Positions 1 to 18,310 of a stretch of DNA of 64,000 nucleotides are shown piece after piece. The DNA is from Escherichia coli (GTDB lineage Bacteria; Pseudomonadota; Gammaproteobacteria; Enterobacterales; Enterobacteriaceae), in NCBI RefSeq assembly GCF_022846255.1, contig NZ_AP025682.1. The stretch is one strand, 5' to 3'. The notes beneath the pieces are model-generated. The model worked only from the letters and a program-made list of their open reading frames with translations. It did no database searches and was not told where the DNA came from. The position numbers and the translations under genes were made by a program. Positions within the stretch are counted from its first letter, which is position 1, and the number at the start of each line of letters is the position of its first letter.

Positions 1-1650
1 CTGACGGTCACCGTAACGGACTGTGGTGGAAATCCGGTTGCCAATGCCCCCTTTAGCATCAGACGTGGCGATGCTATAAATCGTCAAGGAACGGTGAATT
101 CAGCCAATCCGGTTTCACTGGATTCAACGGTTTTAACCAATACCTCGACGGAATATAAAGGAACAACTGGAGAAGACGGCACGGTGAATATTGCTGTAAC
201 CCAGAAGTCTGGTGAAGGGGTGAAAACTCCATTGTATATCAGTACGACCGGGATGGTTCAGCCGATCCAGCAGGATGTTATTTTCACCGTTGTAACCAGT
301 CCGGACAGTACGCTCGCCAATATGTGGGGCCATATGCCAGAAACCCTGACTGCGGCCAATGGGACTGTATTTGCTCGCCCCAAACTTTCTGCTGAAGCTA
401 ATGGCGGTGGTGGTACACAATCTGAGACTAACGAAGTATGGGCGATATTTAACCATAAGAAAGCAATTGCATCAGGAGCGAATGCGGTTGGTTGCGGTGG
501 GATGGAATACGTTCCCAGCGAGGAAAATTTGCACTCACTCTATAGTGCATTTTCTTCGGGAAACATCAAAATCACCCAGGGATGGCCGGTTTCTGTAATC
601 TATAAGTCCTCGACACCCGACAAATATGTAACAACAGCTCGTAATTACAATGCGGTTAACCTGAGCACCAACAGTGTGAAAGGTCAGCAAACATCCAATT
701 CAGTACACTATTTAGTGTGTCAAAAAGAGGCTGCTCCTGTCATAAAATCAATAGCCATCAGCACTCAAGATTCTCAGTATGTGTCGGTAGTAGGGTTCAA
801 TGACGCCAGAGATAATGGGGGTAGAGTGAAAACTTTTGATGCCCTGAAATTAAAAACATGGGGTAAGGGCAGTGGTTCGATGACGGTTAAAGTGACGGGG
901 AGCGATAATAAGCCATTAAAAAATGGTCCGTTTATGCTGCTACACGCTCCTGGGTTTGATCGCCAGGGCGGTATACACGCAAATCATACCGACACGGTTC
1001 AGTTTAAAGATAGTCATAGCAGTAGTACGAATAGGAATATGGGGGCTATGGACGTTTATTATGGGACAACAAATGATAGCGGTGAGCTGACGTTTTCATT
1101 AAGCCAGCCGCAGGATGGAACTGGACTAGCCGTGATCATGAGTGCCCGAGATGACGATTATGTTCATAATATACTCAGTAATGATTTCCCTGTTATTTTT
1201 GCGACAGAGACGAGCCCGGATACGAAAGAAGCGAAGTATTGGGGGTATATGTCTGAAACACAAGTACTTGGTGGCAGAGTATTTAATCGTCCTAAATTGG
1301 TGAGTGAGTTACCGGTGTCTGGGGATAGTATTAGTCCTGGAGGCGCTGATGCTGAGGTTTGGGCAGGGATTTCCGGGGATGATTCTCTTGCGGGTATTAA
1401 CGGTGGCTGTGCAGCAGATAAACGACCAACAGTAGCGGAGTTAAATGATTTGCGGTCTGTATATAATACGAGTCACCAATACGGCTACTTTATGAAAGGG
1501 GGATGGCCTGCAATCGGTAAAGATACTGGGCAGAATGAATACTGGACAGATGTTGCCGAGGCGCGTTTTGGATACATGGAGATGTATTCAGGAGATGTAC
1601 ATTACATTGCGGGTGGCCTAAACACGGCAATGCAGATCTGTGCGCAGTAA
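1..1650 (+). CDS. 3' end of a giant Ig-like repeat protein (Rat-family-like); the reading frame is open from window position 1, so the gene starts upstream of the window
   Basis: Frame 1 is open from nt 1 to the stop at 1648-1650 (ORF track lists only from the first Met at 94). The translation has two Big_1-like segments and two copies of the FTV.TSPD..WG(H/Y)M..RPKL motif that recurs nine times in the 2693-aa protein downstream. Confidence 0.75.
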   Translation: MTVTVTDCGGNPVANAPFSIRRGDAINRQGTVNSANPVSLDSTVLTNTSTEYKGTTGEDGTVNIAVTQKSGEGVKTPLYISTTGMVQPIQQDVIFTVVTSPDSTLANMWGHMPETLTAANGTVFARPKLSAEANGGGGTQSETNEVWAIFNHKKAIASGANAVGCGGMEYVPSEENLHSLYSAFSSGNIKITQGWPVSVIYKSSTPDKYVTTARNYNAVNLSTNSVKGQQTSNSVHYLVCQKEAAPVIKSIAISTQDSQYVSVVGFNDARDNGGRVKTFDALKLKTWGKGSGSMTVKVTGSDNKPLKNGPFMLLHAPGFDRQGGIHANHTDTVQFKDSHSSSTNRNMGAMDVYYGTTNDSGELTFSLSQPQDGTGLAVIMSARDDDYVHNILSNDFPVIFATETSPDTKEAKYWGYMSETQVLGGRVFNRPKLVSELPVSGDSISPGGADAEVWAGISGDDSLAGINGGCAADKRPTVAELNDLRSVYNTSHQYGYFMKGGWPAIGKDTGQNEYWTDVAEARFGYMEMYSGDVHYIAGGLNTAMQICAQ

Positions 1651-1776: not shown

Positions 1777-2001
1777 ATGGAAGTGCAGTGTCCGGTTTGT
1801 CATCAATCTATTGAATTACATGGCGGTAGTGCGCATTGTGAATATTGCCAACAGGATATCGCGTTTCAGGCGCTTTGCCCGGATTGTCATCAACCCTTAC
1901 AGGTGCTAAAAGCGTGCGGTGCGGTGGACTATTTTTGCCAGAACGGTCACGGATTAATTTCTAAAAAGCGTATTGAATTTTTGCCGTTTAATATCATTTG
2001 A
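1777..2001 (+). CDS. yfgJ: Small zinc-ribbon protein, YfgJ-like (74 aa)
   Basis: AGGAG 7 nt upstream of the ATG. Four CxxC pairs (CPVC, CEYC, CPDC, plus C47/C54), typical of a double zinc ribbon. Sits where yfgJ lies next to xseA in K-12; identification from memory. Confidence 0.55.
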   Translation: MEVQCPVCHQSIELHGGSAHCEYCQQDIAFQALCPDCHQPLQVLKACGAVDYFCQNGHGLISKKRIEFLPFNII

Positions 2002-2059
2002 ATATATTGTTTTATCATTTATATATTCCATGTGAATGGTAAAACAATTTCTTACTGAC

Positions 2060-2110
2060 CGCACTATTAATATAATTGAGTATGAACAATCATGTATAAT
2101 GTTTAAGAAT
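2060..2110 (+). promoter_or_regulatory. Candidate sigma70 promoter region for sinH in an AT-rich intergenic stretch
   Basis: TATAAT hexamers at 2071-2076 and 2095-2100, the second preceded by TG; no well-spaced -35 found. AT-rich spacer 2002-2200 upstream of the sinH start. Confidence 0.25.
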
Positions 2111-2200
2111 ATATTTAGCCTTTTCTGTCGTGCTATCCCGGATGTTCTGGAATAGAATGGCAGAATTCATTTTTGACTTTATTGTCAATAGGGAAAAGGT

Positions 2201-4375
2201 ATGCTGCGATGGACACGCTGTATTATGCTAACATTTATCTCTGGGGCTGCTTTTGCGGCTCCAGAGATAAATGTTGAGCATAAAGAATCATTACCTGATT
2301 TAGGTAGTCAGGCCGCACAACAAGAAGAACAAACCAACAAGGGGAAATCGCTAAAAGAGCGTGGTGCCGATTACGTCATTAACTCCGCCACGCAAGGGTT
2401 TGAAAACTTGGCCCCTGAGGCGCTGGAATCTCAGGCCAGAAGCTATCTGCAAAGTCAAATCACCTCAACCGCACAATCTTATATTGAAGACACACTCTCT
2501 CCCTACGGTAAGGTCCGTTCGAACCTCTCCATTGGTCAGGGCGGCGATCTGGATGGCAGTTCCATCGATTATTTTGTTCCCTGGTACGATAATCAAACCA
2601 CTGTTTATTTCAGCCAATTTTCTGCACAACGAAAAGAAGATCGTACGATCGGGAATATTGGGCTTGGTGTAAGACATAATTTTGATAAATGGTTGTTGGG
2701 TGGAAATATATTTTATGATTATGATTTTACCCGTGGGCATCGCCGTTTAGGTTTAGGTGCCGAAGCGTGGACTGATTATTTAAAATTCTCTGGCAACTAT
2801 TATCACCCGCTTTCTGACTGGAAAGACTCCGAAGATTTCGATTTTTATGAGGAGCGTCCTGCGCGCGGCTGGGATATTCGCGCCGAAGCCTGGCTTCCCG
2901 CTTATCCGCAGCTTGGTGGTAAAATTGTTTTCGAACAGTATTACGGTAATGAAGTCGCGCTTTTTGGCACTGATAATCTGGAGAAAGATCCCTACGCGGT
3001 AACGCTTGGACTGAATTATCAACCAGTGCCGTTACTGACAGTTGGGACGGACTATAAAGCGGGGACCGGAGATAACAGTGATGTCAGCATTAATGCCACT
3101 CTTAATTATCAGTTTGGCGTTCCGCTAAAAGATCAATTGGATAGCGATAAAGTGAAAGCGGCGCACTCGCTGATGGGCAGCCGTCTTGATTTCGTTGAGC
3201 GTAATAACTTTATTGTTCTGGAATACAAAGAAAAAGATCCGCTTGATGTCACCCTGTGGTTGAAAGCGGATGCCACCAACGAGCACCCTGAGTGCGTCAT
3301 TAAGGACACTCCCGAAGAAGCCGTCGGTCTGGAAAAATGTAAGTGGACCATTAACGCACTCATTAATCATCACTACAAAATCGTTGCGGCCTCCTGGCAG
3401 GCGAAAAACAATGCTGCCCGCACGCTGGTGATGCCGGTTATCAAAGAGAATACTCTGACAGAGGGTAACAATAACCACCGGAACCTGGTGCTGCCTGCCT
3501 GGCAGTACAGTTCCGATCAAGCCGAACAAGAAAAACTCAATACCTGGCGGGTTCGTCTGGCGCTGGAAGATGAAAAAGGCAATCGGCAGAGCTCCGGTGT
3601 GGTGGAAATCACCGTTCAACAGGACCGTAAAATTGAGCTCATCGTTAACAACATCGCCAATGTACCGGATAAGAGCAATCACAGCCACGAAGCCAGCGCA
3701 CAGGCCGATGGTGTAGATGGTGTAGTGATGGATCTCGATATTACTGATAGCTTTGGCGACAACACTGACCGCAACGGTAATGTCTTGCCGCAGGATAATC
3801 TCAACCCGCAGTTGTTTGATGCCAACGATAAAAAAGTGACGCTGACGAATAACCCCTGCACTACCGAGACTCCCTGTGTCTTTATCGCCAAACAAGATAA
3901 AGAAAAGGGGACCGTTACGCTCTCCAGTACGTTGCCTGGCACCTTCCGTTGGAAGGCGAAAGCTGCTCCCTATGATGACAGTAACTATGTTGACGTAACG
4001 TTCCTGGGTTCTGACATCGGCGGGCTGAATGCCTTTATCTATCGTGTTGGTGCGGCTAAGCCCGTGAATCTTATCGGCAATAAAGAACCGTTGCCTCTCA
4101 ATAGCAGCTATCGCTTTGTGTTGTGGCGTGACGCTAACAAAGACGGCGTGTTCCAGCTATCAGAGAAACTCACTGAAGAGGAGATGAAACAGTATGACTA
4201 TCAGTGGGAATTCACGGGACATAGCGTGAATGGCAATACCGGTGCGCAAGCCAATACCACTAACGTCGATATAGAGATCCCGGCAACGAACAAGGAAGCG
4301 GCAGCGAAGTTTAGTGCCCAGGTAACCGATGGCGTGCAGGGATACGGTTTGCAGGTCAATTACAGCAAGAAATAG
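2201..4375 (+). CDS. sinH: Inverse autotransporter adhesin of the intimin/invasin family (SinH-like), 724 aa
   Basis: N-terminal signal peptide (…FISGAAFA/APE). Residues ~110-330 show intimin/invasin beta-barrel-type sequence (DYFVPWYD, LGLGAEAWTDYLKFSGNYYHPLSDW, GWDIRAEAWLP, LGLNYQP), followed by an Ig-like passenger. RBS GGAAAAGG upstream. Confidence 0.85.
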   Translation: MLRWTRCIMLTFISGAAFAAPEINVEHKESLPDLGSQAAQQEEQTNKGKSLKERGADYVINSATQGFENLAPEALESQARSYLQSQITSTAQSYIEDTLSPYGKVRSNLSIGQGGDLDGSSIDYFVPWYDNQTTVYFSQFSAQRKEDRTIGNIGLGVRHNFDKWLLGGNIFYDYDFTRGHRRLGLGAEAWTDYLKFSGNYYHPLSDWKDSEDFDFYEERPARGWDIRAEAWLPAYPQLGGKIVFEQYYGNEVALFGTDNLEKDPYAVTLGLNYQPVPLLTVGTDYKAGTGDNSDVSINATLNYQFGVPLKDQLDSDKVKAAHSLMGSRLDFVERNNFIVLEYKEKDPLDVTLWLKADATNEHPECVIKDTPEEAVGLEKCKWTINALINHHYKIVAASWQAKNNAARTLVMPVIKENTLTEGNNNHRNLVLPAWQYSSDQAEQEKLNTWRVRLALEDEKGNRQSSGVVEITVQQDRKIELIVNNIANVPDKSNHSHEASAQADGVDGVVMDLDITDSFGDNTDRNGNVLPQDNLNPQLFDANDKKVTLTNNPCTTETPCVFIAKQDKEKGTVTLSSTLPGTFRWKAKAAPYDDSNYVDVTFLGSDIGGLNAFIYRVGAAKPVNLIGNKEPLPLNSSYRFVLWRDANKDGVFQLSEKLTEEEMKQYDYQWEFTGHSVNGNTGAQANTTNVDIEIPATNKEAAAKFSAQVTDGVQGYGLQVNYSKK

Positions 4376-4430
4376 GATCAGCGCCATGGCTGATCGGGCC
4401 ACCGCTGAATGTTAACCAAGGAGAGTGTTT

Positions 4431-5423
4431 ATGAAACCTCATATGAAACGTGGCCTGACAAAAGTCGCGCTGGCGCTGATGCTGGCTGGATACTGTGCCG
4501 TGCCAGCCGCTATGGCGGAAGATGCCGCCTGGGTAGACAGTGGGACGACCGCTGAATTCGAAGGGACCATACCCTGGCTTTATCGCGAGGGGGGGAATGC
4601 CACGATTAACTCGGATGATGCGGATCACATCAAAGTAACGTCTGATGGTAAAGGTACTCGTCCTTCAGGTAGCGAGACGGATAAACGCCTTTACTCAGGA
4701 GATACCATCACGTTGGGGTGGGATATCGGCGATACCGAAGGGGATATCGACGATGGTCCAGATGGTATTGATGCGAAAACGACGGCGACTATCAAATGGT
4801 ACAGCTACAGCGATAATGCGGGTGGCGGTAAAACGGAGCTGACCGCAGCGGCGGGTAAGACGAGTTATAAACTCACTGATAACGAACGTGGGCGCTATAT
4901 CGGTGTTGAAATCCAGCCTATCACTCAGACCGGTAATCCCTTCCAGGGAACGTCGCTGACTCTGCTGGATATCTCAACGGCCAGCGGTGGCGGCAGCGAT
5001 ACGGACAATGTTGATCCTGGCCCGGTTGTGAACCAGAACCTGAAAGTCGCCATCTTCGAGAAAGGCACCAGTACCAACCTTATCGGTGGTAATACAGCCA
5101 TTGCGCTTAACAAAACGTATGTGGCCAAACTGTACTCGGATGAAAACCAGAACGATAAGTACGATGCGGGTACGGATGTGGACGTTACCGCTAACTATGA
5201 CTTTGCATGGGTCTTTAACGGTAACAGTAAACAACTTGCTGCGGCGGGTGGTATTGCCAACGCCAGCTTCGATAACAATGACATTGTTATTCCGCAAACT
5301 AACGAACAAGCAAGAGCCAGCCTTAACGGTAGTGACCGTAATGGTAAGACCGGTCTTGCAATCCCGGCAAACGGCGACGGCGTCCAGGGCTATACGCTGT
5401 CTATCATTTACAAACACCACTAA
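4431..5423 (+). CDS. sinI: Secreted protein of unknown function (SinI-like by position), ~330 aa
   Basis: AAGGAG 7 nt upstream of the ATG at 4431 (ORF track starts at the GTG at 4425). Signal peptide (…AVPAAMA/EDAAW). C-terminal DGVQGY motif shared with SinH; N-terminal W…G.T.EF.GT.P motif shared with the giant protein. Symbol assigned from synteny only. Confidence 0.7.
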   Translation: MKPHMKRGLTKVALALMLAGYCAVPAAMAEDAAWVDSGTTAEFEGTIPWLYREGGNATINSDDADHIKVTSDGKGTRPSGSETDKRLYSGDTITLGWDIGDTEGDIDDGPDGIDAKTTATIKWYSYSDNAGGGKTELTAAAGKTSYKLTDNERGRYIGVEIQPITQTGNPFQGTSLTLLDISTASGGGSDTDNVDPGPVVNQNLKVAIFEKGTSTNLIGGNTAIALNKTYVAKLYSDENQNDKYDAGTDVDVTANYDFAWVFNGNSKQLAAAGGIANASFDNNDIVIPQTNEQARASLNGSDRNGKTGLAIPANGDGVQGYTLSIIYKHH

Positions 5424-5431
5424 TGCGCACC

Positions 5432-5462
5432 AACAGCATTCCCGTATGGGAATGCTGTTTTC
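5432..5462 (+). terminator. Intrinsic terminator or attenuator between the sinI-like gene and the giant gene
   Basis: Inverted repeat ACAGCATTCCC / GGGAATGCTGT with loop GTAT, followed by TTTTCC, 9 nt after the stop codon. Confidence 0.45.
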
Positions 5463-5533
5463 CGCCTGTTTTGCTTAGCGACGCGTTAAGCAAAACGGGT
5501 TGACGTTTTGTTTATCATGCTGGAGTTTTCTAC

Positions 5534-8500
5534 ATGTCGGTATGTCTGAAACCAGGAAAAATCATTGTGCTTCTGGGCATGTTGGCAGCCTTTATGCTGT
5601 CTGACTTTGCACGGGCAGGAGTGGAATGGCAGACATATCCTGGTTCTACAGGCGAGTTTAACGGTACAGTTCCTATTGCCGATAGCGCCAGCGTACCCGT
5701 CTATCAGGGAAGCGTTCAGCTTGATCCTGCTGCATCTCATGATGTGGCGTTTTCTGCTAAACCGAATGAATTTAGCGTTGACGATGACGCTGCTAACCTG
5801 ATAGTCGCTAATCCTCAGGACAGTGAAGGCGACCAGTTTTCCACACCACCTGCGCTGCGCTGGGAAAAACAAACGCCGCCGACCGTTAGCCTGGTGTGGG
5901 CCGATGCCGCCACGCCGGATACGCCGCTTAATCCACAGCCTACCGCCAACCGTAGCTTTTGCGCTCAGGGCCTGGCCGGGCGTTCGCTGGTGGCCTGGCC
6001 GCAGATTGATGCGCAGCAGACCATTCCACTGCTTTATCTGCTGACTTCGACCGGTTATCCCTATGAGGGGACGGTGGCGCTGGCTGACCAGAAAGTGACG
6101 CTGAACATCGCGCCCGCGCAGGGCGATTTAATCTCGGTGAGCGCCAGTGGTTATAACGAAACGATCGCGGCGGCGAAAACCACCGTTGGTGACACCATCA
6201 CGCTAACTGTTACCACCAAAGACTGTCAGGGCAACGTTGCGGGCAATATTCCTTTTATTATCAAACGACAGGATGCGAAAAACCGCCAGGATGCGGTGAA
6301 TAACACCGCACCGGTGGTGCTGGATAGCACCGAGTTAACGACGACCGCGACCGAGTATCACGGCACATCGGATGCCAACGGTACGGCAACCATCACGGTG
6401 ACCCAACCTAATGGGCCCGGCGTCAAAACGCCGCTGGTGGTCAGCATCTCCGGCATTGCGCAAACCAGTGAGACGGCGGTTATTTTTACCGTACTCACCA
6501 GCCCGGACGTGGCGCAGGCCACGATGTGGGGCCATATGGCGGAAACGGTTGAGGCTCATGGCTACACGTTCAGCAGGCCAAAACTGGCGGCAGAAGTCAG
6601 CAATGAAAATGCCACGGTCGTCGATCACAACGAAACCTGGTCAACTTTCACCTGGAGCGGGGCAGACAGCCATTGCACCGTGCTGCCGGGCATGCGCCAT
6701 TTCGGCGCACTGGCGACCGTTATTCCCACCACGGTACAGACTGTCCTCGGCTGGCCGATGCAGGATGATTATTACTGGACATCGCTGGCGGGCACTACCG
6801 GGCAGCACCATGCGGCGGATGTCTCTAACCGTGCTGAAGCGCAAAAGCCGGATAGCACCACGTTTCTTGTAAGCTGCGTGGACAAACCCGCGCCTGACGT
6901 CGAACCGAAAATCGTCCTTACGCCAGAAAACTATGATGATACGGCACAGGCGATGAAAGCGAAGGTGGGTGAGGACGCCACGATGCGTCTGACGATCACC
7001 GACAATAAAAACAACGATCAACCGCTGGCGTATTACTACTTCTCGCTGCATCTGGATGACGGCGTTAACCGCAAAAATCAAACCGATCCTGCCTGGGAAG
7101 CTCATCCGGTACAGATTGCTGGCGGCAGTAATTTTCGCCAGGTCGACGCACATACCTATGAGGGCATGACTGATGTCAACGGTCAGGCTTCGCTAACCCT
7201 GAGCCAGCCTGGTGGCGCGGGCGTTAAAACTCACATTACGGCGAAAATGCGCAGCGATTTTAACGCCACGGATGCCAAAGATGTGATTTTTACCGTAATC
7301 ACCAGCCCGGACAGCGACAAAGCGCGGATGTGGGGCCATATGCGCGGCATTATTGAGTCCGGCAGTCTGTATAAACGCCCGTTGCTGGCGGATGAAACCG
7401 AGCATGAACTGGGAACAGTGCGGGAAAACAACGAAGACTGGGCGTTGTACGATCAAAACACCAGTATGCAGGCGGAATGCGGGGTGGGTCATATACCGCG
7501 CCAGAGCTCACTGGAAAGCCTGTTTTCAGCCCATCCCGGTAACGCGATTGGCACTGAGTATGGCTGGCCCACCGCACAACAGAGCTACCTAAGCGCGGTG
7601 GAGCAAGAAACGCATTCATCGGTGAATCTGGGGAACGGGAGCGTCGACAGCTATTCCGGCTTTAAGCAGAATTACCTCTCCTGTTCGGGTAATGAGATGG
7701 TAGCGAATGTTGAAGTCAGCACCGATCATGATGTGTCTGTTGGCACCCAAGCGCAAGCCAAAGTGGGTGACACCATCGTAATGACCGTGCGTACGATTAA
7801 CTCGCTAAATAATTCCCCGGTACCCTTTAGCGCATTCACCATTACCAAAGGTATGGGATATAACCGAGCGGGACAGGTGAGCGGGTTTGATGACCCGAGT
7901 AGCGGCGCAATCACGATGGATAACTCGCAATATGGTACATCACAGCCATCGATGGTTTATGCGGGAACAACCGATGTCCGGGGCGTGGCGACGGTCGAGA
8001 TTAAACAACCGCAGGGCGTCGGGCTAAGAACGGCGCTGAGCGTAACGCCGGTAAATTCCTACCTGCCGAATACCGTTAACTACAGCGTTATTTTTACCAC
8101 CCCAACCAGCCCGGATGTTTCCGGCGCGCAGATGTGGGGCCATATGGATGAAACGATTACCGTTGATTCATCAACCTTTAGCCGGCCTAAGCTGGCGGCG
8201 GAAATCGCCAGCCCGGACGGAACCCTGACCGAAAATAACGAAATCTGGGCGCGCGTGAGCCAGGCCAATACGTCCAGTACCAGCAAAGGCGGCTGCGGCA
8301 CCAATATGCTGCCGCGTCGCTCCCAGCTAAGCGCGTTGTATAGCGCCAACAGTGGTAACGCGGTGCAAACGACGCACGGCTGGCCAACGCAACGTCAGCC
8401 CTACTGGAGCAGCTCACCGGCGGATGTGACACCGCACTTTTTCACGATAGCGCTGAACGATGGCGCGCAGGCCATCGGCGGCAATACGCCGGTTTACGTC

Positions 8501-11500
8501 AGTTGCCTGACGACGGCGAACAAGCCTGCCAGCAGCATTACGCTGGAGGTGGTTGATAAAGCGCAATGGAATGCGGGGAATAACGCGGCAAAGCTGAAAA
8601 AAGGTGAGACACTACAGGTTAAAGTGACAGTAAAAGACTCGCAGGGTAACGCGTTAGCGGATATGCCATTTACCCTCAGTCGCGGTGATGGCTATACCCG
8701 TAGCGGCGAAAAACATATTGCCGGTAGCGGCGATGCGCTGGTAGCGCCCGTGGTGGTCAATGGCGGGTTGGCAGATGAAACAACGTTGAATGACACTGCA
8801 ACGGTGTATACCGCCATGACCGGCAGCGACGGCAGCAAAATCCTTAATATTACCCGCCCGGATACCCACGGCACCAAAACGGCGCTGACGGCAACGCTTT
8901 ACTCCGATGCGACGAAAAAAGACAGCCTGGACACGATCTTTACGGTGGTTACCAGCCCGGATAGCAGCCAGGCGAAAATGTGGGGGCATATGCCGGAAAC
9001 GGTGACGGCTGAGGACGGTACGGTCTTTAAACGCCCGCGGTTACTGAAGGAACTGAGCAGTCAGACTGGGCGAACATCAACGCTTGAAGACAACGAAAAC
9101 TGGGCGTTGTTTAACATTAATTATGCGAGCTCTTCCACGACGTATAGTGGCTGTGGAACCAACTATATTCCAACTCAGGCTGGTCTGACGTCACTGTTTG
9201 CTAATAATGCGGGCAACACCATGAAAACCGTGCAGGGCTGGCCGGTGGCAACGCGCTATTTGTCCAACACGTCCGACAATGGCAGCATGGAGCAGCGTAA
9301 CTACAAGGCGGTCGATCTCAGCAATGGCACGAGTGCGGCAGTGTCATCAACGGCGCTGCAACTGCTGACCTGTCAGACTACACCGGTAACCACGGTGAGC
9401 CAAATCCTGCTGGAAGCGGCAGATCCGGCGACGCTGGATACCACCTATAACGTGGTAAAAGCGAAAAAAGGCGAAGAATCCGTGGTGCGCGTCACCACCA
9501 AAGATGCACAAGGCAACCTGGTGGGCAATACGGCATTTATCCTGACGCGTGCCAACAGCGTGAGTCGGGCTAATGCATCAGCGACGATGAGCGTGGGCTC
9601 GTTGACGGTGACGGATGCCTGGGGCAATACGCGAAATAATTTCCAGTCGACAAGTGAAACCATTTACGGCGTGACCGGTGCTGATGGGGCAACGACATTG
9701 ACCCTGAAACAGGATAACAGTACCGGGTTAAGAACCGATCTCACGGCAAAACTGGATACGTCCAGCAGCGTCAAGGCAACGCTACCGGTGGTCTTTACCG
9801 TCGTGACCAGCCCGGATTCGCCAAAAGCGAATTTTTGGGGACATATGGCCGAAACGGTGGCGGCCTCCGATGGCTCGGTTTATAAGCGACCATTGCTGTT
9901 TGGCGAACTGACCAACAACTATGCGCGATATAGCACGCTTGAGAACGGAGAAAGCTGGGCAAGATTCACCTCGACTCAGTCGATTGACACCAGCATGAAT
10001 GGGTGTGGTACAGATTATATGCCGACGCTGGATGGTCTGAAGTCTTTGTATGACGCCAATAGCGGTAATGCGATGAATACGGTGCAGGGATGGCCGGTAA
10101 ATACGAGTTATCTCACCAACACCCCGAGTGATACACAAGCAGGGAGCCGTTACTACAATGTGGTGCAACTGAATTCTGGCGCGGTTTCGCAAATCGTATC
10201 CACAGTGCTGGCGTTACAAACCTGCCGCACGACGCCGTTGACGACTGCCAGCCAGATTACGCTGGAAGCCGCGGATCCTGCGCAGTTTGTCAGCATTGAT
10301 AGTACGCTTAGCGCTGTCAAAGCGAAGAAGGGCGATGAGGTGTCGATCCGCATTTCGACTAAAGATGCGCAGGGGAATTTAGTCGGCAATACGCCGTTTG
10401 CCCTGAAACACGCGAACTCGATCAATCGTCAAAATGTGACGTCATCGCAGAAAGTGTCGGTCACGACTGCAGCGGGTACGACGGTGGATACCAGTGCAGC
10501 GACCATCCTGTATGGCGTAACCGGGCCAGACGGAACGACGACGATGGCGCTCCGACAGGATGCGTCCACCGGACTACGAACCGACTTTTATGCCTTGTTG
10601 AACGATACCGGCGTGTCGTCGGGCACCTTGCCGGTGATCTTTACCGTTATCACCAGCCCGGACACGCCGCTGGCGGCCAACTGGGGCCATATGGCGGAAA
10701 CCTTTACCAGCAGCGAAGGCGTTACCTTCAAGCGGCCTTTCCTCAAAGCTGAACTTTCCGGCGGTACGGCGAAAACGGTCAATAATGAAGTCTGGTCGCT
10801 CCTGACATCGACTGAGAAAGCGGACGCCAGCAAGGCCGGGTGTGATGAGGCGTATCAACCGCAGACGACAGACATGCAGGGGCTGTATGCCGATTATCCT
10901 AACGGCCAACTGGCAACGGTGCTCGGCTTGCCGACTGCCGCCGGGAACTGGTGGGATTATGACATGATGGCGGCAGTGAGCAATAGCTGGAGTTACCAGG
11001 TGTTTTCGCCGGGTAATGGCCAAACGATTCAGGCATCGTCCGGCTATACGGCGGTAGTGATGTGTCTGGTAAAACCACATACGGAAGCGGCCACAATAGA
11101 GATTACCTCGACGGCGCAGGACGCAGCAAAATCGGCCAGTAATGGTGGACGACCGAGCGCCGTAGCGAAGAAAGGTGAGACGATTCCGTTGACGGTGACC
11201 GTGCGTGATAGCGCCGGGAACCCGATGCCATATGCCGACTTTACCCTCTCGCGTGAAACGACGCTGGATCGCTCGAAAACAGCTGTTAACAGTGCGGTGG
11301 ACGATCTTACCGTAACGGCATTGGTACCGGCGAACAGGGATAGCGTGTTGACAGCGAGCGGAGCAAAAACTCTCGCAACGACGGGCAGCGATGGCACTGC
11401 CACCTTTGAGGTGGGGCAGTACTCTACGACCGGGCTGGCGACGCCGTTAACCGTGACGCTGGCGCGTGATACGACGAAAGCTGCCACGCTGGATGTTATC

Positions 11501-13615
11501 TACACGGTGATCACCAGCCCGGATTCGCCGAGTGCGAAATTCTGGGGGCATATGCCAGACACCTTTACCAGCTCGGCGGGCGTCACCTTCAAACGGCCGT
11601 TGCTGAAAGCCGAAGCGACGTCAGGCTCATCAATTAGCACTAACGGTAACGGTGAAGTGTGGGCGTATATGAGCAACTTGCAAAATTTAACATCGACAGA
11701 TTGCCCGCTGGAGTATCAGCCGCGCAGCAACGAGCTGTTGGATTTATATAGCGATCACCCGAACGGCGCGATAATGACTGACCTGGGGCTACCGATATAT
11801 GCAGGCAAGTGGTGGGCTTATGATATGGTCATGCCGGATTTATATACGTGGCAGTATCAGACTGTCAGCCTGAGCACCGGAGATATCGCGAAGAGCTCGT
11901 CAACCAACGCGCTGATGCTTTGCCTGACGAAGCCGCATCCGGCAGGCGTCAGCGTAATGTTGACGTCATCCGCAATGGATAACGCCAGAAGCCTCAGTAA
12001 TGGCGGGCGACCTAGCGCGTCAGTGAAAAAAGGCAACCCACTGCCAATTGTAGTGACGGTCAAAGATCGTGATGACAACCCGCTGGCGGGAGAGGCCGTG
12101 ACGCTCAGGCGTGGTTCAGCGATGAGCCGTTCAGGAGCAGTAGTGGGCACGCCGGCAAATGCAATGACGTTGACAGAGTTGACACCCGTGTCGGCGGAGT
12201 TTTCTCTGGCCGCACACGATACGCAATGGCAAGGTTTCACCGGCAGTGATGGTACGGTCACTTTCAATGTTGAACAGCCTGAGACCATCGGCCTGGCCAT
12301 CCCGTTCACCGCTATACTGGCGCGAGATGTGGCAACCACAACTGTCCTTGATGCGATCTTTACCGTCGTCACCAGCCCGGATTCCACAATGGCGACCTAC
12401 TGGGGTCATATGCCGGATACGGTCACGGCGGAAAACGGCGTGGTCTTTGAACGGCCTAAATTGTTGAAAGAGTTGCCGTCGAGCACCGGAATTAGTCAGG
12501 TGACGGATAACAATGAAGTCTGGCCGCTGTTTAAGGCAACGCAAAGGGAAGATAGCAGCCTCAGTCCTTGTGAAGCGGCGCGTCGGCCATTGAGCGATGA
12601 TTTAGAATCGCTCTACGCGCGCTATCCGGGGAACACGCTGACGACACAAATCGGTTGGTCTACGCGGTATACATGGTGGGCGCTGGATAACTGGCAGGGG
12701 AATGCCCAGGTTGTTAGTCTGAGTGATGGCTTAAAGTGGTCGACGGTGAATACCGCGTATCAAGGGTGTCTGGTTAACCCGCGCGCGACGGTCTCCAGCG
12801 TCACGCTGACATCAACGGCGCTGGATGACGCCACACAGGCGGCGACGGTGAAAAAAGGCGACGCCGCGCCCATTGTCGTTACCGTAAAAGACAGCGCCGG
12901 GAAGCCGGTGCCAAATATCGCTTTTACCCTAAAACGCGGTGAGGCCGTGCCACGTAACAGCGGGGCGACGCTGTATGGCGATGTGGATGCGATGGACGAT
13001 TTGGCCGTGCAACCTTCATCCGGTGCGGCAGTCACGTTGGCTGACAGCGGAAATACCATCGACGGAGTCACGGGAGCGGACGGTACGGCAAGCTTTACCG
13101 TTCGTCAGGATAATACGCCAGGATATAAAACGCCGTTGACGGTGACGCTAACGGATAACGCCACCATAACGGCGACGCTGGACACGATTTTCACCGTGCC
13201 GACCAGCCCGAATGTCGCCACGGCGTATTTCTGGGGTCATATGGCGGATACCGCCACGGTAAGTGGCAAGACGCTGCATCGCCCGCTATTAAAATCGGAG
13301 TTGCCGTCAGGCGCTACCGCAGCAGCAACGCCTGATGTAAATAATGAAACCTGGGCGCTGGCGCATGTTATGGATTCCTCTAAATGGGATGTCGCGCAGC
13401 AGTGCGGCAGTATGAATAACGTGCCGAGCAGTGCCGAATTACAAACATTACACTCCGGCTTTAGCACATTGGGATGGCCGTCCTCGATAAGCTTCCCGTA
13501 TTTATCTACTGATAAGGCTGGGTCGTTCTATTGTGGTGTTGATGAAGGCTCTGGCAGTCTCAACTGTGGCATTCAGCCTGCGAAAACGCCGGGGTTTGCA
13601 ACCTGTTTCCAATAA
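5534..13615 (+). CDS. ratA: Giant secreted Ig-like repeat protein (RatA-like), 2693 aa
   Basis: GGAG 6 nt upstream of the ATG. N-terminal signal peptide (…[11 protein letters not shown]), no lipobox Cys. Nine tandem ~280-aa modules, each with a Big_1-like segment, an (I/V)FTV.TSPD…WGHM…RP.L motif and a Cys-pair segment. No beta-barrel-like region recognised. Confidence 0.85.
6170..13500 (+). repeat. In-frame tandem array of nine coding modules inside the giant gene (period ~800-860 nt)
   Basis: The TSPD/WGHM motif recurs at about nt 6500, 7300, 8110, 8950, 9810, 10650, 11515, 12370 and 13205. DNA copies are diverged, with pairs 4/5 and 6/7 most alike. Confidence 0.75.
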
Positions 13616-13645: not shown

Positions 13646-15197
<1,552 letters not shown>

Positions 15198-16664
15198 ATG
15201 CTACGTATCGCTAAAGAAGCTCTGACGTTTGACGACGTTCTCCTCGTTCCTGCTCATTCTACCGTTCTGCCGAATACTGCTGACCTCAGCACCCAGCTGA
15301 CGAAAACTATTCGTCTGAATATCCCTATGCTTTCCGCAGCAATGGATACCGTAACGGAAGCGCGCCTGGCTATTGCTCTGGCTCAGGAAGGCGGTATCGG
15401 CTTTATCCACAAAAACATGTCCATTGAACGCCAGGCAGAAGAAGTTCGCCGTGTGAAAAAACACGAATCTGGCGTGGTAACCGATCCGCAGACCGTACTG
15501 CCAACCACGACGCTGCGTGAAGTGAAAGAACTGACCGAGCGTAACGGCTTTGCTGGCTACCCGGTTGTTACCGAAGAAAACGAACTGGTCGGCATTATCA
15601 CCGGTCGTGACGTGCGTTTTGTGACCGACTTGAGCCAGCCGGTTAGCGTTTACATGACGCCGAAAGAGCGTCTGGTAACCGTGCGTGAAGGCGAAGCCCG
15701 TGAAGTGGTGCTGGCAAAAATGCACGAAAAACGCGTTGAAAAAGCGCTGGTGGTTGATGATGAATTCCACCTGATCGGCATGATCACTGTGAAGGATTTC
15801 CAGAAAGCGGAACGTAAACCGAACGCGTGTAAAGACGAACAAGGCCGTCTGCGTGTAGGTGCAGCGGTTGGCGCGGGCGCTGGTAACGAAGAGCGTGTTG
15901 ATGCGCTGGTTGCCGCAGGCGTTGACGTTCTGCTGATCGACTCCTCTCACGGTCACTCTGAAGGTGTTCTGCAGCGTATCCGTGAAACTCGCGCTAAATA
16001 TCCTGACCTGCAAATCATCGGCGGCAACGTGGCAACTGCTGCAGGTGCCCGCGCGCTGGCAGAAGCCGGTTGCAGTGCCGTTAAAGTGGGTATCGGCCCT
16101 GGTTCTATCTGTACGACGCGTATCGTGACTGGTGTCGGTGTTCCGCAGATCACCGCCGTTGCTGATGCAGTAGAAGCCCTGGAAGGTACCGGCATTCCGG
16201 TTATCGCTGACGGCGGTATCCGTTTCTCAGGCGATATCGCTAAAGCTATCGCCGCTGGCGCAAGCGCGGTGATGGTAGGTTCCATGCTGGCAGGTACTGA
16301 AGAATCTCCGGGTGAAATCGAACTCTACCAGGGCCGTTCTTACAAATCTTACCGTGGTATGGGTTCCCTGGGCGCGATGTCCAAAGGTTCTTCTGACCGT
16401 TACTTCCAGAGCGACAACGCTGCCGACAAACTGGTGCCAGAAGGTATCGAAGGCCGCGTAGCCTATAAAGGTCGCCTGAAAGAGATCATTCACCAGCAGA
16501 TGGGCGGCCTGCGCTCCTGTATGGGCCTGACCGGCTGTGGTACTATCGACGAACTGCGTACTAAAGCGGAGTTTGTACGTATCAGCGGTGCGGGCATTCA
16601 GGAAAGCCACGTTCACGACGTGACCATTACTAAAGAGTCCCCGAACTACCGTCTGGGCTCCTGA
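15198..16664 (+). CDS. guaB: IMP dehydrogenase
   Basis: Translation from the ATG at 15198 ([16 protein letters not shown]…) gives the 488-aa GuaB; the ORF-track start at 15129 is an upstream in-frame Met. Confidence 0.95.
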
Positions 16665-16732
16665 TTCTCTTCGCCCGACTTCATGTCGGGCGATTTATAT
16701 TATCTGTTTCACTTGCCTCGGAATAAGCGTCA

Positions 16733-18310
16733 ATGACGGAAAACATTCATAAGCATCGCATCCTCATTCTGGACTTCGGTTCCCAGTATACTCAACTGGT
16801 TGCGCGCCGCGTGCGTGAACTGGGGGTTTACTGCGAACTGTGGGCGTGGGATGTGACAGAAGCACAAATTCGTGACTTCAATCCAAGCGGCATTATTCTT
16901 TCCGGCGGCCCGGAAAGTACTACTGAAGAAAACAGCCCGCGTGCGCCGCAGTATGTCTTTGAAGCAGGCGTACCGGTATTCGGCGTTTGCTATGGTATGC
17001 AGACCATGGCGATGCAGTTGGGCGGTCACGTTGAGGCTTCTAATGAACGTGAATTTGGCTACGCGCAGGTTGAAGTCGTAAACGACAGCGCACTGGTTCG
17101 CGGTATCGAAGATGCGCTGACCGCAGATGGTAAACCGCTGCTGGACGTCTGGATGAGCCACGGCGATAAAGTTACCGCTATCCCGTCCGACTTCGTCACT
17201 GTAGCCAGCACCGAAAGCTGCCCGTTTGCCATCATGGCCAACGAAGAAAAACGCTTCTATGGCGTACAGTTCCACCCGGAAGTGACTCACACCCGCCAGG
17301 GTATGCGCATGCTGGAGCGTTTTGTGCGTGATATCTGCCAGTGTGAAGCCCTGTGGACGCCAGCGAAAATTATCGACGACGCTGTAGCTCGCATCCGCGA
17401 GCAGGTAGGCGACGATAAAGTCATCCTCGGCCTCTCTGGTGGCGTGGATTCCTCCGTAACCGCAATGCTGTTGCACCGCGCTATCGGTAAAAACCTGACT
17501 TGCGTATTCGTCGACAACGGCCTGCTGCGTCTCAACGAAGCAGAGCAGGTTCTGGATATGTTTGGCGATCACTTTGGTCTGAATATTGTTCACGTACCGG
17601 CAGAAGATCGCTTCTTGTCAGCGCTGGCTGGCGAAAATGATCCGGAAGCAAAACGTAAAATCATCGGTCGCGTTTTCGTTGAAGTATTCGATGAAGAAGC
17701 GCTGAAACTGGAAGACGTGAAGTGGCTGGCGCAGGGCACCATCTACCCTGACGTTATCGAATCTGCGGCGTCTGCAACCGGTAAAGCGCACGTCATCAAA
17801 TCTCACCACAACGTGGGCGGCCTGCCGAAAGAGATGAAGATGGGGCTGGTTGAACCGCTGAAAGAGCTGTTCAAAGACGAAGTGCGTAAGATTGGTCTGG
17901 AGCTGGGCCTGCCGTACGACATGCTCTACCGTCACCCGTTCCCGGGACCAGGCCTCGGCGTTCGTGTTCTGGGTGAAGTGAAGAAAGAGTACTGTGACCT
18001 GCTGCGCCGTGCTGACGCCATCTTCATTGAAGAACTGCGTAAAGCGGACCTGTACGACAAAGTCAGCCAGGCGTTCACCGTCTTCCTGCCAGTACGTTCC
18101 GTTGGCGTAATGGGCGATGGTCGTAAGTATGACTGGGTTGTCTCTCTGCGTGCTGTCGAAACCATCGACTTTATGACCGCACACTGGGCACATTTGCCGT
18201 ACGATTTCCTCGGTCGCGTTTCCAACCGCATTATCAATGAAGTGAATGGTATTTCCCGCGTGGTGTATGACATCAGCGGCAAGCCACCAGCGACTATTGA
18301 GTGGGAATGA
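16733..18310 (+). CDS. guaA: GMP synthase (glutamine-hydrolysing)
   Basis: 525-aa ORF with an N-terminal glutamine amidotransferase part (…GVCYGMQ…) and an ATP-pyrophosphatase part (SGGVDSSV); 68 nt after guaB. Confidence 0.95.

Follow-up and report, generated by a model that had tools for sequence, protein, structure and literature searches.

The stretch of Escherichia coli DNA analysed here, called the window below, is 64,000 nt long and carries the following genes at its start, in an ila/CS54-type island between der and xseA:

1-1650, plus strand: second Rat-like gene, of which the window start leaves only the 3' part; it holds two copies of the motif described below.
2201-4375, plus strand: sinH, an intimin-like inverse autotransporter (NF033423, 1474 bits, cut-off 999).
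4425-5423, plus strand: sinI, a SinI-family autotransporter-associated protein (NF040711, 370.7 bits, cut-off 165).
5534-13615, plus strand: RatA-like giant repeat protein of 2,693 aa (NF011844, Pfam, nucleotide comparison).

The open reading frame at 5534-13615 was assigned by sequence to the curated equivalog family NF011844 as a RatA-like protein, with a score of 5430.9 bits (cut-off 3870) and an alignment that runs from residue 3 to residue 2693 and spans the whole profile (positions 1-2683 of 2683). A Sec-type signal peptide, predicted by eye, is followed by an N-terminal region of about 190 aa having no Pfam match and then by nine repeated modules. The RatA-like protein of the E. coli ila locus (sinH-sinI-ratA; NF011844 / PRK15316) matches over the full length and has the same nine-module architecture; its RefSeq label is 'adhesion domain-containing protein', and the gene in the window has 92.4% nucleotide identity to E. 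coli genes of that label. Of 5,426 complete E. coli genomes, 1,621 carry the gene. The gene in the window is a divergent allele, since the complete genomes compared reach at most about 92% identity to it, whereas guaBA next door is 99.9% identical. In the ila locus, as here, sinH and sinI stand directly upstream of the RatA-like gene and xseA follows on the opposite strand, and the same gene order was found in E. coli MS 21-1 and FHI_NMBU_03. The window differs from that locus in the extra Rat-like gene upstream of sinH. SinH has been proposed as the outer-membrane translocator of the Rat-like protein (PMC4943183), and its help in secretion and surface exposure of the RatA-like adhesin is a hypothesis of the literature (PMC4943183; PMC6714894). 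Between SinI and the RatA-like protein, N-terminal similarity amounts to a single match of 11 residues (E 0.033).

The CS54 island of Salmonella is of the same type and likewise adjoins sinH and sinI. Its RatA and RatB proteins (NF011843 / NF011842, 'DUF823/DUF824 repeat adhesins') are built from the same BIg21 plus InvE_AD module, but with another number of modules and another length. The protein in the window scores 2008.7 bits against the Salmonella RatA profile NF011843 (cut-off 3700) and 2233.6 bits against the RatB profile NF011842 (cut-off 4079), in both cases below the cut-off and with partial coverage. Judged from these profiles, it is a paralogue or relative of Salmonella RatA and RatB and a different protein. 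Salmonella requires RatB to colonise the mouse cecum optimally (PMC8011750, citing Kingsley 2003).

Pfam resolved the repeats of the RatA-like protein into nine pairs of BIg21 (PF05688, formerly DUF824) and InvE_AD ("Adhesion domain", PF05689, formerly DUF823). All nine BIg21 matches are full-length (E 3e-18 to 4.2e-27), and the nine InvE_AD matches cover model positions 1-135/136 (E 5.8e-22 to 3.1e-37). In order to locate the motif, we scanned the six frames of the window with the regular expression TSP[D/N]-x6-WGHM, which gave nine matches, all of them in frame within 5534-13615. Modules (Pfam) and motif copies (regular-expression scan and Pfam) are as follows, with residue numbers of the protein in brackets:

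6188-6880, plus strand: module 1 (BIg21 219-321, InvE_AD 324-449); motif copy 1 at 6497-6538, plus strand (322-335), at the BIg21/InvE_AD junction.
6980-7687, plus strand: module 2 (BIg21 483-589, InvE_AD 592-718); motif copy 2 at 7301-7342, plus strand (590-603).
7766-8509, plus strand: module 3 (BIg21 745-856, InvE_AD 860-992), the module that was modelled; motif copy 3 at 8105-8146, plus strand (858-871; residues 113-126 of the structure model).
8603-9373, plus strand: module 4 (BIg21 1024-1139, InvE_AD 1142-1280); motif copy 4 at 8951-8992, plus strand (1140-1153).
9470-10225, plus strand: module 5 (BIg21 1313-1424, InvE_AD 1427-1564); motif copy 5 at 9806-9847, plus strand (1425-1438).
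10331-11068, plus strand: module 6 (BIg21 1600-1706, InvE_AD 1709-1845); motif copy 6 at 10652-10693, plus strand (1707-1720).
11174-11923, plus strand: module 7 (BIg21 1881-1993, InvE_AD 1996-2130); motif copy 7 at 11513-11554, plus strand (1994-2007).
12032-12769, plus strand: module 8 (BIg21 2167-2279, InvE_AD 2282-2412); motif copy 8 at 12371-12412, plus strand (2280-2293).
12857-13606, plus strand: module 9, C-terminal (BIg21 2442-2555, InvE_AD 2559-2691); motif copy 9 at 13202-13243, plus strand (2557-2570), the TSPN variant.

A preliminary description made from the sequence had reported that TSPD…WGHM is kept in all nine modules, with TSPN in the last and the first copy within 6480-6600, and the scan bears this out. 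The positions it gave for the other eight copies are each about 16-19 nt too far upstream, although the copies themselves are present. It had also credited the cut upstream gene with a single WGYM copy; this copy is there, in the terminal module of that gene (TSPD…WGYM, nt 1210-1251), together with a second one, TSPD…WGHM, at nt 295-336. The preliminary description gave no named domain for the motif, which marks the boundary of the two Pfam families. In the nine modules the BIg21 matches end about one residue before the Thr and the Pro is InvE_AD position 1, which places T-S in a two-residue gap, P-D at InvE_AD positions 1-2 and W-G-H-M at positions 9-12. The adhesion domain of the C-terminal module has four Cys, compared to two in the other modules.

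The claim that the sequence drifts around a constant motif also held. In a 20-column block around the motif the nine modules are on average 68% identical in pairwise comparison, and outside this block the figure is 30%; of all 14-column windows in the module alignment, the top one coincides exactly with TSPD…WGHM. There are 22 invariant columns, which take in F-T-V upstream of the motif and an Ala within it, and further downstream R-P-x-L-x-x-E, E-x-W, a Pro, a Leu, a Gly and the last Cys. In order to have a broader measure of conservation, we searched 1.84 billion representatives with a profile, which gave 295 matches, and counted residues in 202 copies of the domain, taken from 150 cluster representatives. 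Gly is found in all 202 copies, Ser and Met in 201 each and Pro in 200, so that each of these four is at least 99% conserved; Ala is kept in 197, Asp in 186 (Asn in 14), His in 181 and Trp in 171 (Tyr in 29), and after the motif Arg in 200, Leu in 196 and Pro in 192. Multi-copy Rat-like proteins keep the motif, and so do proteins with a single copy or two, whose domain mostly stands at the C-terminus. As far as these alignments go, TSPD…WGHM is a family-wide signature. Conservation is uneven along the adhesion domain, with 2.28 bits per position over its first 60 positions compared to 1.37 bits at positions 61-147.

An AlphaFold model of module 3 (pLDDT 91.1, pTM 0.84) was used for a fold search and matched PDB 5N40, the Yersinia pseudotuberculosis InvE from which InvE_AD takes its name (deposited as 'putative invasin'), with an Ig-like domain followed by the adhesion domain. 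The motif residues have a pLDDT of about 97 and lie in coil, with single β-bridges at T111 and G124, between a strand at 103-108 and a hairpin at 129-138. A model of the adhesion domain alone was less confident (pLDDT 73, residues 1-11 below 50), but it was built from an alignment of 11 sequences compared to 40, which confounds the low confidence at the motif and the disordered N-terminus, and this model was kept out of the fold search.

The structural relatives resemble the module to different degrees. InvE has the same Ig-like plus adhesion-domain fold, with the motif T220-S221-P222-D223, A227, W230-G231-N232-M233 (index in the deposited chain, from alignment) and thus Asn in place of His. 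Its single adhesion domain stands at the C-terminal end of the crystallised fragment, whereas the RatA-like protein carries nine such pairs and no β-barrel of its own. The tip of InvE shares the Ig plus lectin-like arrangement with comparable units in intimin (D2-D3) and invasin (D4-D5), but the lectin part of the latter two has no detectable sequence similarity, and the TSPD…WGHM connector belongs to the InvE_AD family only. The C-terminal domain of Legionella Lcl (Lcl-CTD; DUF1566, PDB 8Q4E) is a glycosaminoglycan-binding C-type-lectin-like domain that trimerises on a collagen stalk and lacks a disulfide. The adhesion domain of the RatA-like protein differs in its conserved Cys pair and in the Ig-like domain and motif that come before it. 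Pfam DUF1566 (PF07603) had no match in the RatA-like protein. DUF823, DUF1566 and Fib_succ_major have been placed in one C-type-lectin class of retroelement-diversified target proteins (PMC5758913). Our literature search found no publication describing the InvE structure (5N40), DUF823 or the TSPD…WGHM motif.

We therefore favour, with a probability of roughly 0.7, the reading that the motif is the structural junction signature of the Ig-like and lectin-like pair in the RatA-like adhesin module. The first domain of a module is an Ig-like β-sandwich (BIg21) and the second a C-type-lectin-like adhesion domain (InvE_AD). I/V-F-T-V ends the last Ig strand, T-S-P-D forms a tight exit turn, and the invariant Ala with W-G-H-M makes up an ordered, non-regular docking segment before the first β-hairpin of the lectin-like domain, with R-P-x-L-x-x-E coming after it. 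In such a segment Pro and Gly may fix the backbone, Trp, Met, Ala and Phe may pack, and Thr, Ser, Asp and His may cap or hydrogen-bond, which would hold the two domains of a module together as a single rigid unit. Ligand specificity would then be a matter of the C-terminal half of the lectin-like domain, which varies much more. A structural role is the most likely one, with predicted burial of the motif, predicted contacts between the domains and a putative rigidifying function; the Ig-lectin 'superdomain' of intimin and invasin has been described as rigid (PMC7718877). The preliminary description had expected a structural or binding role rather than linker sequence. The motif is constrained and is no floppy linker, as its pLDDT of about 97 and its family-wide conservation indicate, yet topologically it is an inter-domain connector. 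TSPD follows directly on the last Ig-like strand and comes close to the ordinary strand junction of an Ig-like fold that had been named as the case against a special site. The motif is the hallmark junction of two catalogued domains and in this sense ordinary.

The preliminary description had also raised a His/Asp metal site. Such a site, for example for Ca2+ or Zn2+, might rigidify the rod at each Ig/lectin junction, with the TSPD Asp, the WGHM His and nearby conserved acidic residues as ligands. Asp and His are indeed highly conserved, position 23 is Glu or Asp in 169 of the 202 copies and E41 and E55 are conserved in at least 98%; cadherin-type Ig arrays offer a precedent for linkers stiffened by Ca2+ (PMC7718877). 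However, a conserved His/Asp site is unlikely because the His is Asn or Tyr in other copies and the Asp is sometimes Asn. The substitutions extend to the crystallised InvE, where the His is Asn, and the 21 copies out of 202 that have replaced it carry Tyr, Asn, Arg, Asp, Ala, Val or Phe; Asn takes the place of Asp in 14 copies, module 9 here among them. Other His residues are wanting as well, the WGHM His being the sole His of adhesion domains 4, 5, 6 and 8. The canonical Ca2+-dependent C-type-lectin motifs (EPN, QPD and WND) are absent from the adhesion domains here, and the closest fold relative, Lcl-CTD, is without the expected Ca2+- and carbohydrate-binding motifs (PMC11162425). We consequently rejected a metal site as a family-wide feature and consider a site of this kind at the junctions improbable.

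It is about equally improbable that the motif DNA (ACC AGC CCG GAY … TGG GGN CAT ATG) is itself selected or homogenised besides the constraint on the protein, for example as in-frame microhomology for recombination that shuffles modules or changes their number at the domain boundary. The T-S-P codons are identical in all nine copies and the His codon is always CAT. Normalised codon entropy is 0.32 for Thr, 0.22 for Ser and 0.59 for Pro, compared to 0.68-1.0 in 26 other conserved columns, calculated from 198 distinct module instances of 64 loci and the window, which are not phylogenetically independent and include AT-rich Xenorhabdus. Relatives have from 3 to 9 modules, and in orthologues the Ig and adhesion parts of one module can differ strongly in divergence or have different best-matching modules. 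However, any invariant Ser is expected to be locked in AGY, and ACT-AGC would make the avoided tetranucleotide CTAG. Moreover, the pattern is also found in single-copy loci, where shuffling of repeats is irrelevant, and the mosaic of modules fits faster-evolving adhesion domains equally well. A Chi site in ACCAGC (reverse complement GCTGGT) was discarded, since by eye the preceding codon never gives the CC needed for GCTGGTGG. Translational accuracy was inconsistent with the codon bias, the invariant Gly being freely GGG or GGA and the His CAT rather than CAC. That the synonymous constraint on ACC-AGC(-CCG), seen in Escherichia, Citrobacter, Yersinia and Xenorhabdus, makes the boundary also a DNA- or RNA-level element we regard as slightly more doubtful still. 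If it were so, one option would be microhomology for swapping, duplicating or deleting Ig and lectin domains at their exact boundary, and such recombination would drive the variation in length and specificity of these giant adhesins. The synonymous-site conservation at the T-S codons is a small curiosity.

The extreme conservation across family copies would also fit a conserved patch on the protein surface, whose binding partner might be the SinH translocator, the adjacent module or a host ligand common to all copies, but we think this quite improbable. Within multi-copy Rat-like proteins 59 of 60 internal modules have the His compared to 7 of 13 C-terminal ones, and this might point to a contact with the module that comes next. 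This is weakened by the one- and two-copy proteins, which usually have no following module and are equally conserved, with His in 88 of 99 C-terminal copies; if they are inverse autotransporters, as their architecture suggests, they would have no separate translocator either. Ligand sites of adhesins are normally variable, and the variable part here is the C-terminal half, whereas Pro, Gly, Trp, Met and Ala are typical of backbone and core constraints. The relaxation of His in terminal modules nevertheless counts against the favoured structural reading, as a purely generic packing role does not obviously predict it. Finally, a catalytic-triad-like centre of Thr/Ser, His and Asp, which would either cross-link the chain in the manner of the intramolecular Thr-Gln ester bonds of Gram-positive adhesins or cleave it autoproteolytically at each junction, has in its favour only that these residues co-occur within 14 positions and is very improbable, given that the His is missing in the structurally characterised member (WGNM) and in many terminal modules, that no conserved Gln or Asn partner was identified, and that the fold search gave no ester-bond or isopeptide domain match above the Ig/lectin background.

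The gene, both repeat domains and a crystal structure of the family (5N40) are already catalogued, and the motif is known at the domain level. As the junction signature of the Ig-like and lectin-like pair, it is a reliable marker for delimiting modules in RatA-, RatB- and InvE-type adhesins and marks cut points for recombinant Ig plus lectin constructs, which could be useful because the neighbouring SinH is under study as a vaccine antigen against ExPEC. Ligand specificity in these adhesins would be sought outside the motif, in the C-terminal half of the lectin-like domain, where the sequence varies.

We searched the six frames of the window with the pattern TSP[DN]-x6-WGHM and obtained nine matches, all in the frame of the open reading frame at 5534-13615 (+), which encodes a 2,693-aa product. 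Successive copies are 268-287 aa apart. They are listed here, with the start of the first nine bases given for copies 2 to 9.

6497-6538, +, motif copy 1, from aa 322
7301, +, motif copy 2, from aa 590
8105, +, motif copy 3, from aa 858
8951, +, motif copy 4, from aa 1140
9806, +, motif copy 5, from aa 1425
10652, +, motif copy 6, from aa 1707
11513, +, motif copy 7, from aa 1994
12371, +, motif copy 8, from aa 2280
13202, +, motif copy 9, from aa 2557

The recurrence is real and far above chance. The preliminary description had counted nine copies with TSPN in the ninth, which the search bears out, and had correctly placed the first within 6480-6600; its positions for the others fall 16-19 nt too far upstream. 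The single WGYM copy that it allowed the truncated Rat-like gene at 1-1650 (+) is in fact two copies, one WGHM and one WGYM.

Three Pfam scans, which together span the entire protein, returned nine pairs of BIg21 (PF05688) and InvE_AD 'Adhesion domain' (PF05689). In every module the last BIg21 residue directly precedes the motif Thr and the motif Pro is position 1 of the InvE_AD model, so that T-S falls in the two-residue gap between the models, P-D corresponds to InvE_AD positions 1-2 and W-G-H-M to positions 9-12. The motif, for which no named domain was given earlier, is therefore the already known BIg21/InvE_AD junction signature, in a known RatA-like adhesin. The protein matches the NCBIfam equivalog 'RatA-like protein' (NF011844) end-to-end with 5430.9 bits (cut-off 3870). 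Its scores for the 'DUF823/DUF824 repeat adhesins' of Salmonella, RatA and RatB, are under the cut-offs.

NCBIfam identifies the two genes upstream of the ratA-like gene as sinH, which encodes an intimin-like inverse autotransporter, and a member of the SinI family. Complete E. coli genomes are annotated with this arrangement too: der – zinc-ribbon gene – sinH – sinI – 'adhesion domain-containing protein' – xseA(-) – guaB – guaA. The sinH, sinI and ratA genes have been named the ila cluster, with the Salmonella CS54 island as probable origin (PMC12928451). RatB is reported to be needed for optimal mouse cecal colonisation (PMC8011750), and the SinH barrel has been hypothesised to export Rat-like proteins, with ZirT/ZirS as an analogy (PMC4943183; PMC6714894). 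None of the 5,426 complete E. coli genomes compared exceeds 92.4% identity to the island allele. Its span of 1820-13615 (sinH-sinI-ratA) reaches ~92% at best in these genomes compared to 99.9% for the adjoining guaBA (15129-18310), a difference in identity that indicates a divergent or horizontally exchanged allele. The guaBA identity marks the window itself as E. coli. Identity bands of the ratA-like gene in the collection are 90-95% (741 genomes) and 60-80% (860 genomes). The truncated gene, 5' of sinH, is without megablast match in the 5,426 genomes; it has only ~72% partial matches in 481 genomes (e.g. E2348/69), to an 'adhesion domain-containing protein' adjoining the zinc-ribbon gene. 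SinI aa 40-50 (GTTAEFEGTIP, 4542-4574) resembles aa 37-47 of the RatA-like protein (5642-5674; BLASTP E 0.033 in a single comparison), directly after the signal peptide in both proteins, and this common motif might be a putative recognition element for the SinH translocator.

The claim that the sequence flanking the motif drifts was confirmed, mean pairwise identity among the nine modules being 68% in the 20-column motif block versus 30% elsewhere. Of all 14-column stretches in the module alignment, TSPD…WGHM itself is the best conserved; also fixed are F-T-V ahead of it, one Ala within it and, after it, R-P-x-L-x-x-E, E-x-W, P, L, G and a final Cys. We then searched 1.84 billion cluster representatives with a profile built on the window's eleven copies of the adhesion domain, which gave 295 proteins at E ≤ 1e-3. 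The best 150 of these have 224 domain hits (1 to 9 copies each), of which 202 copies span the motif and were used for residue counts: F 193, T 191, S 201, P 200, D 186 (N 14), A 197, W 171 (Y 29), G 202, H 181 (Y 13, N 3, others 5) and M 201, followed downstream by R 200, P 192 and L 196. Mean information in the adhesion domain is 2.28 bits over the first 60 positions versus 1.37 bits over 61-147, which places the motif in a conserved scaffold and makes the C-terminal half the variable part. In a scan with one genome per species, relatives were mainly from Enterobacterales (Escherichia, Citrobacter, Pseudocitrobacter, Superficieibacter, Leminorella, Yersinia, Xenorhabdus and Sodalis), with one on a 3-kb contig assigned to a Collinsella MAG. 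Because the motif itself was the search pattern, the range given here is a lower bound.

Conservation at the junction extends to codons. Thr-Ser-Pro is ACC AGC CCG in all nine copies (6497-6505 in the first) and the motif His is always CAT. Over 198 distinct module instances, taken from the window and 64 other loci of several genera, normalised codon entropy is 0.32 for Thr, 0.22 for Ser (AGY only) and 0.59 for Pro, compared to 0.68 to 1.0, that is freely varying, for 26 other conserved columns. Thr codons end in C in ~89% of instances, and Ser codons are AGC in ~86% and never TCN, a Thr-Ser bias also seen in AT-rich Xenorhabdus.

In multi-copy Rat-like proteins (P0002-P0012 among them) the WGHM His is present in 59/60 internal versus 7/13 C-terminal modules (Fisher p 6e-5, without phylogenetic correction), the others having N, R, D or A. 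In the window, the last module of the truncated gene reads WGYM (1240-1251), and module 9 retains His (13232-13243) but has TSPN. The final residues G-[FY]-A-[TA]-C-[FV]-[QE] (13577-13612) recur in the Rat-like proteins P0003, P0004, P0006, P0012 and P0016. Other Rat-like proteins also share the additional two Cys found in the terminal adhesion domain, which gives the last module the look of a separate, conserved 'cap' subtype. When modules 4-8 are compared to diverged orthologues (P0002-P0007), the Ig half is often far better kept than the adhesion half (58-76% versus 38-51% identity for module 4), and the closest-matching module sometimes differs between the halves. Judged from these alignments, faster or diversifying adhesion-domain evolution and domain exchange at the junction would fit equally.

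A solved structure exists for a single relative, PDB 5N40 ('Yersinia pseudotuberculosis adhesin InvE'; phmmer E 3e-22, profile E 1e-33), in which the equivalent site reads TSPDSAQASMWGNM. Module 3 (aa 746-995), modelled with AlphaFold2 from a 40-sequence alignment, reaches a mean pLDDT of 91.1 and pTM 0.84, with a score of 97 in the motif-bearing 10-residue blocks. DSSP assigns the motif (model residues 113-126) to coil and gives single β-bridges at T111 and G124; the last Ig strand (103-108) precedes the motif and the first adhesion-domain hairpin (129-132, 135-138) follows it. The motif is most likely an ordered connector that couples the Ig-like to the lectin-like domain, its burial and contacts being inferred. 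A patch binding a partner is disfavoured, because multi-copy Rat-like proteins show the same residue pattern as proteins of 1-2 copies, whose domain is usually C-terminal with no module following. A His/Asp metal site, raised as a check in the preliminary description, is unlikely as a feature of the family: InvE carries Asn in place of His, His is missing in 21/202 copies, Asn replaces Asp in 14/202, and the motif His is the sole His in 4/9 adhesion domains here. A catalytic-triad-like centre for cross-linking or cleavage has no support beyond residue identity. Of the structural or binding role first suggested, the structural part is plausible and the binding or metal site is unsupported.

In the connector, F-T-V would terminate the last Ig strand, T-S-P-D would form the exit turn, and Ala, Trp, Gly, His and Met would dock the chain ahead of the first hairpin. 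The kinds of residue agree with this: Pro and Gly may set the geometry of the backbone, Trp, Met, Ala and Phe may pack, and Thr, Ser and Asp/Asn may cap. Where substitutions are tolerated (D→N, H→Y/N, W→Y/F), they keep shape and hydrogen bonding, not charge or metal ligation. Intimin (D2-D3) and invasin (D4-D5) have a rigid Ig-lectin 'superdomain' (PMC7718877), which by analogy would be the functional counterpart of the Ig plus lectin-like unit of this adhesin.
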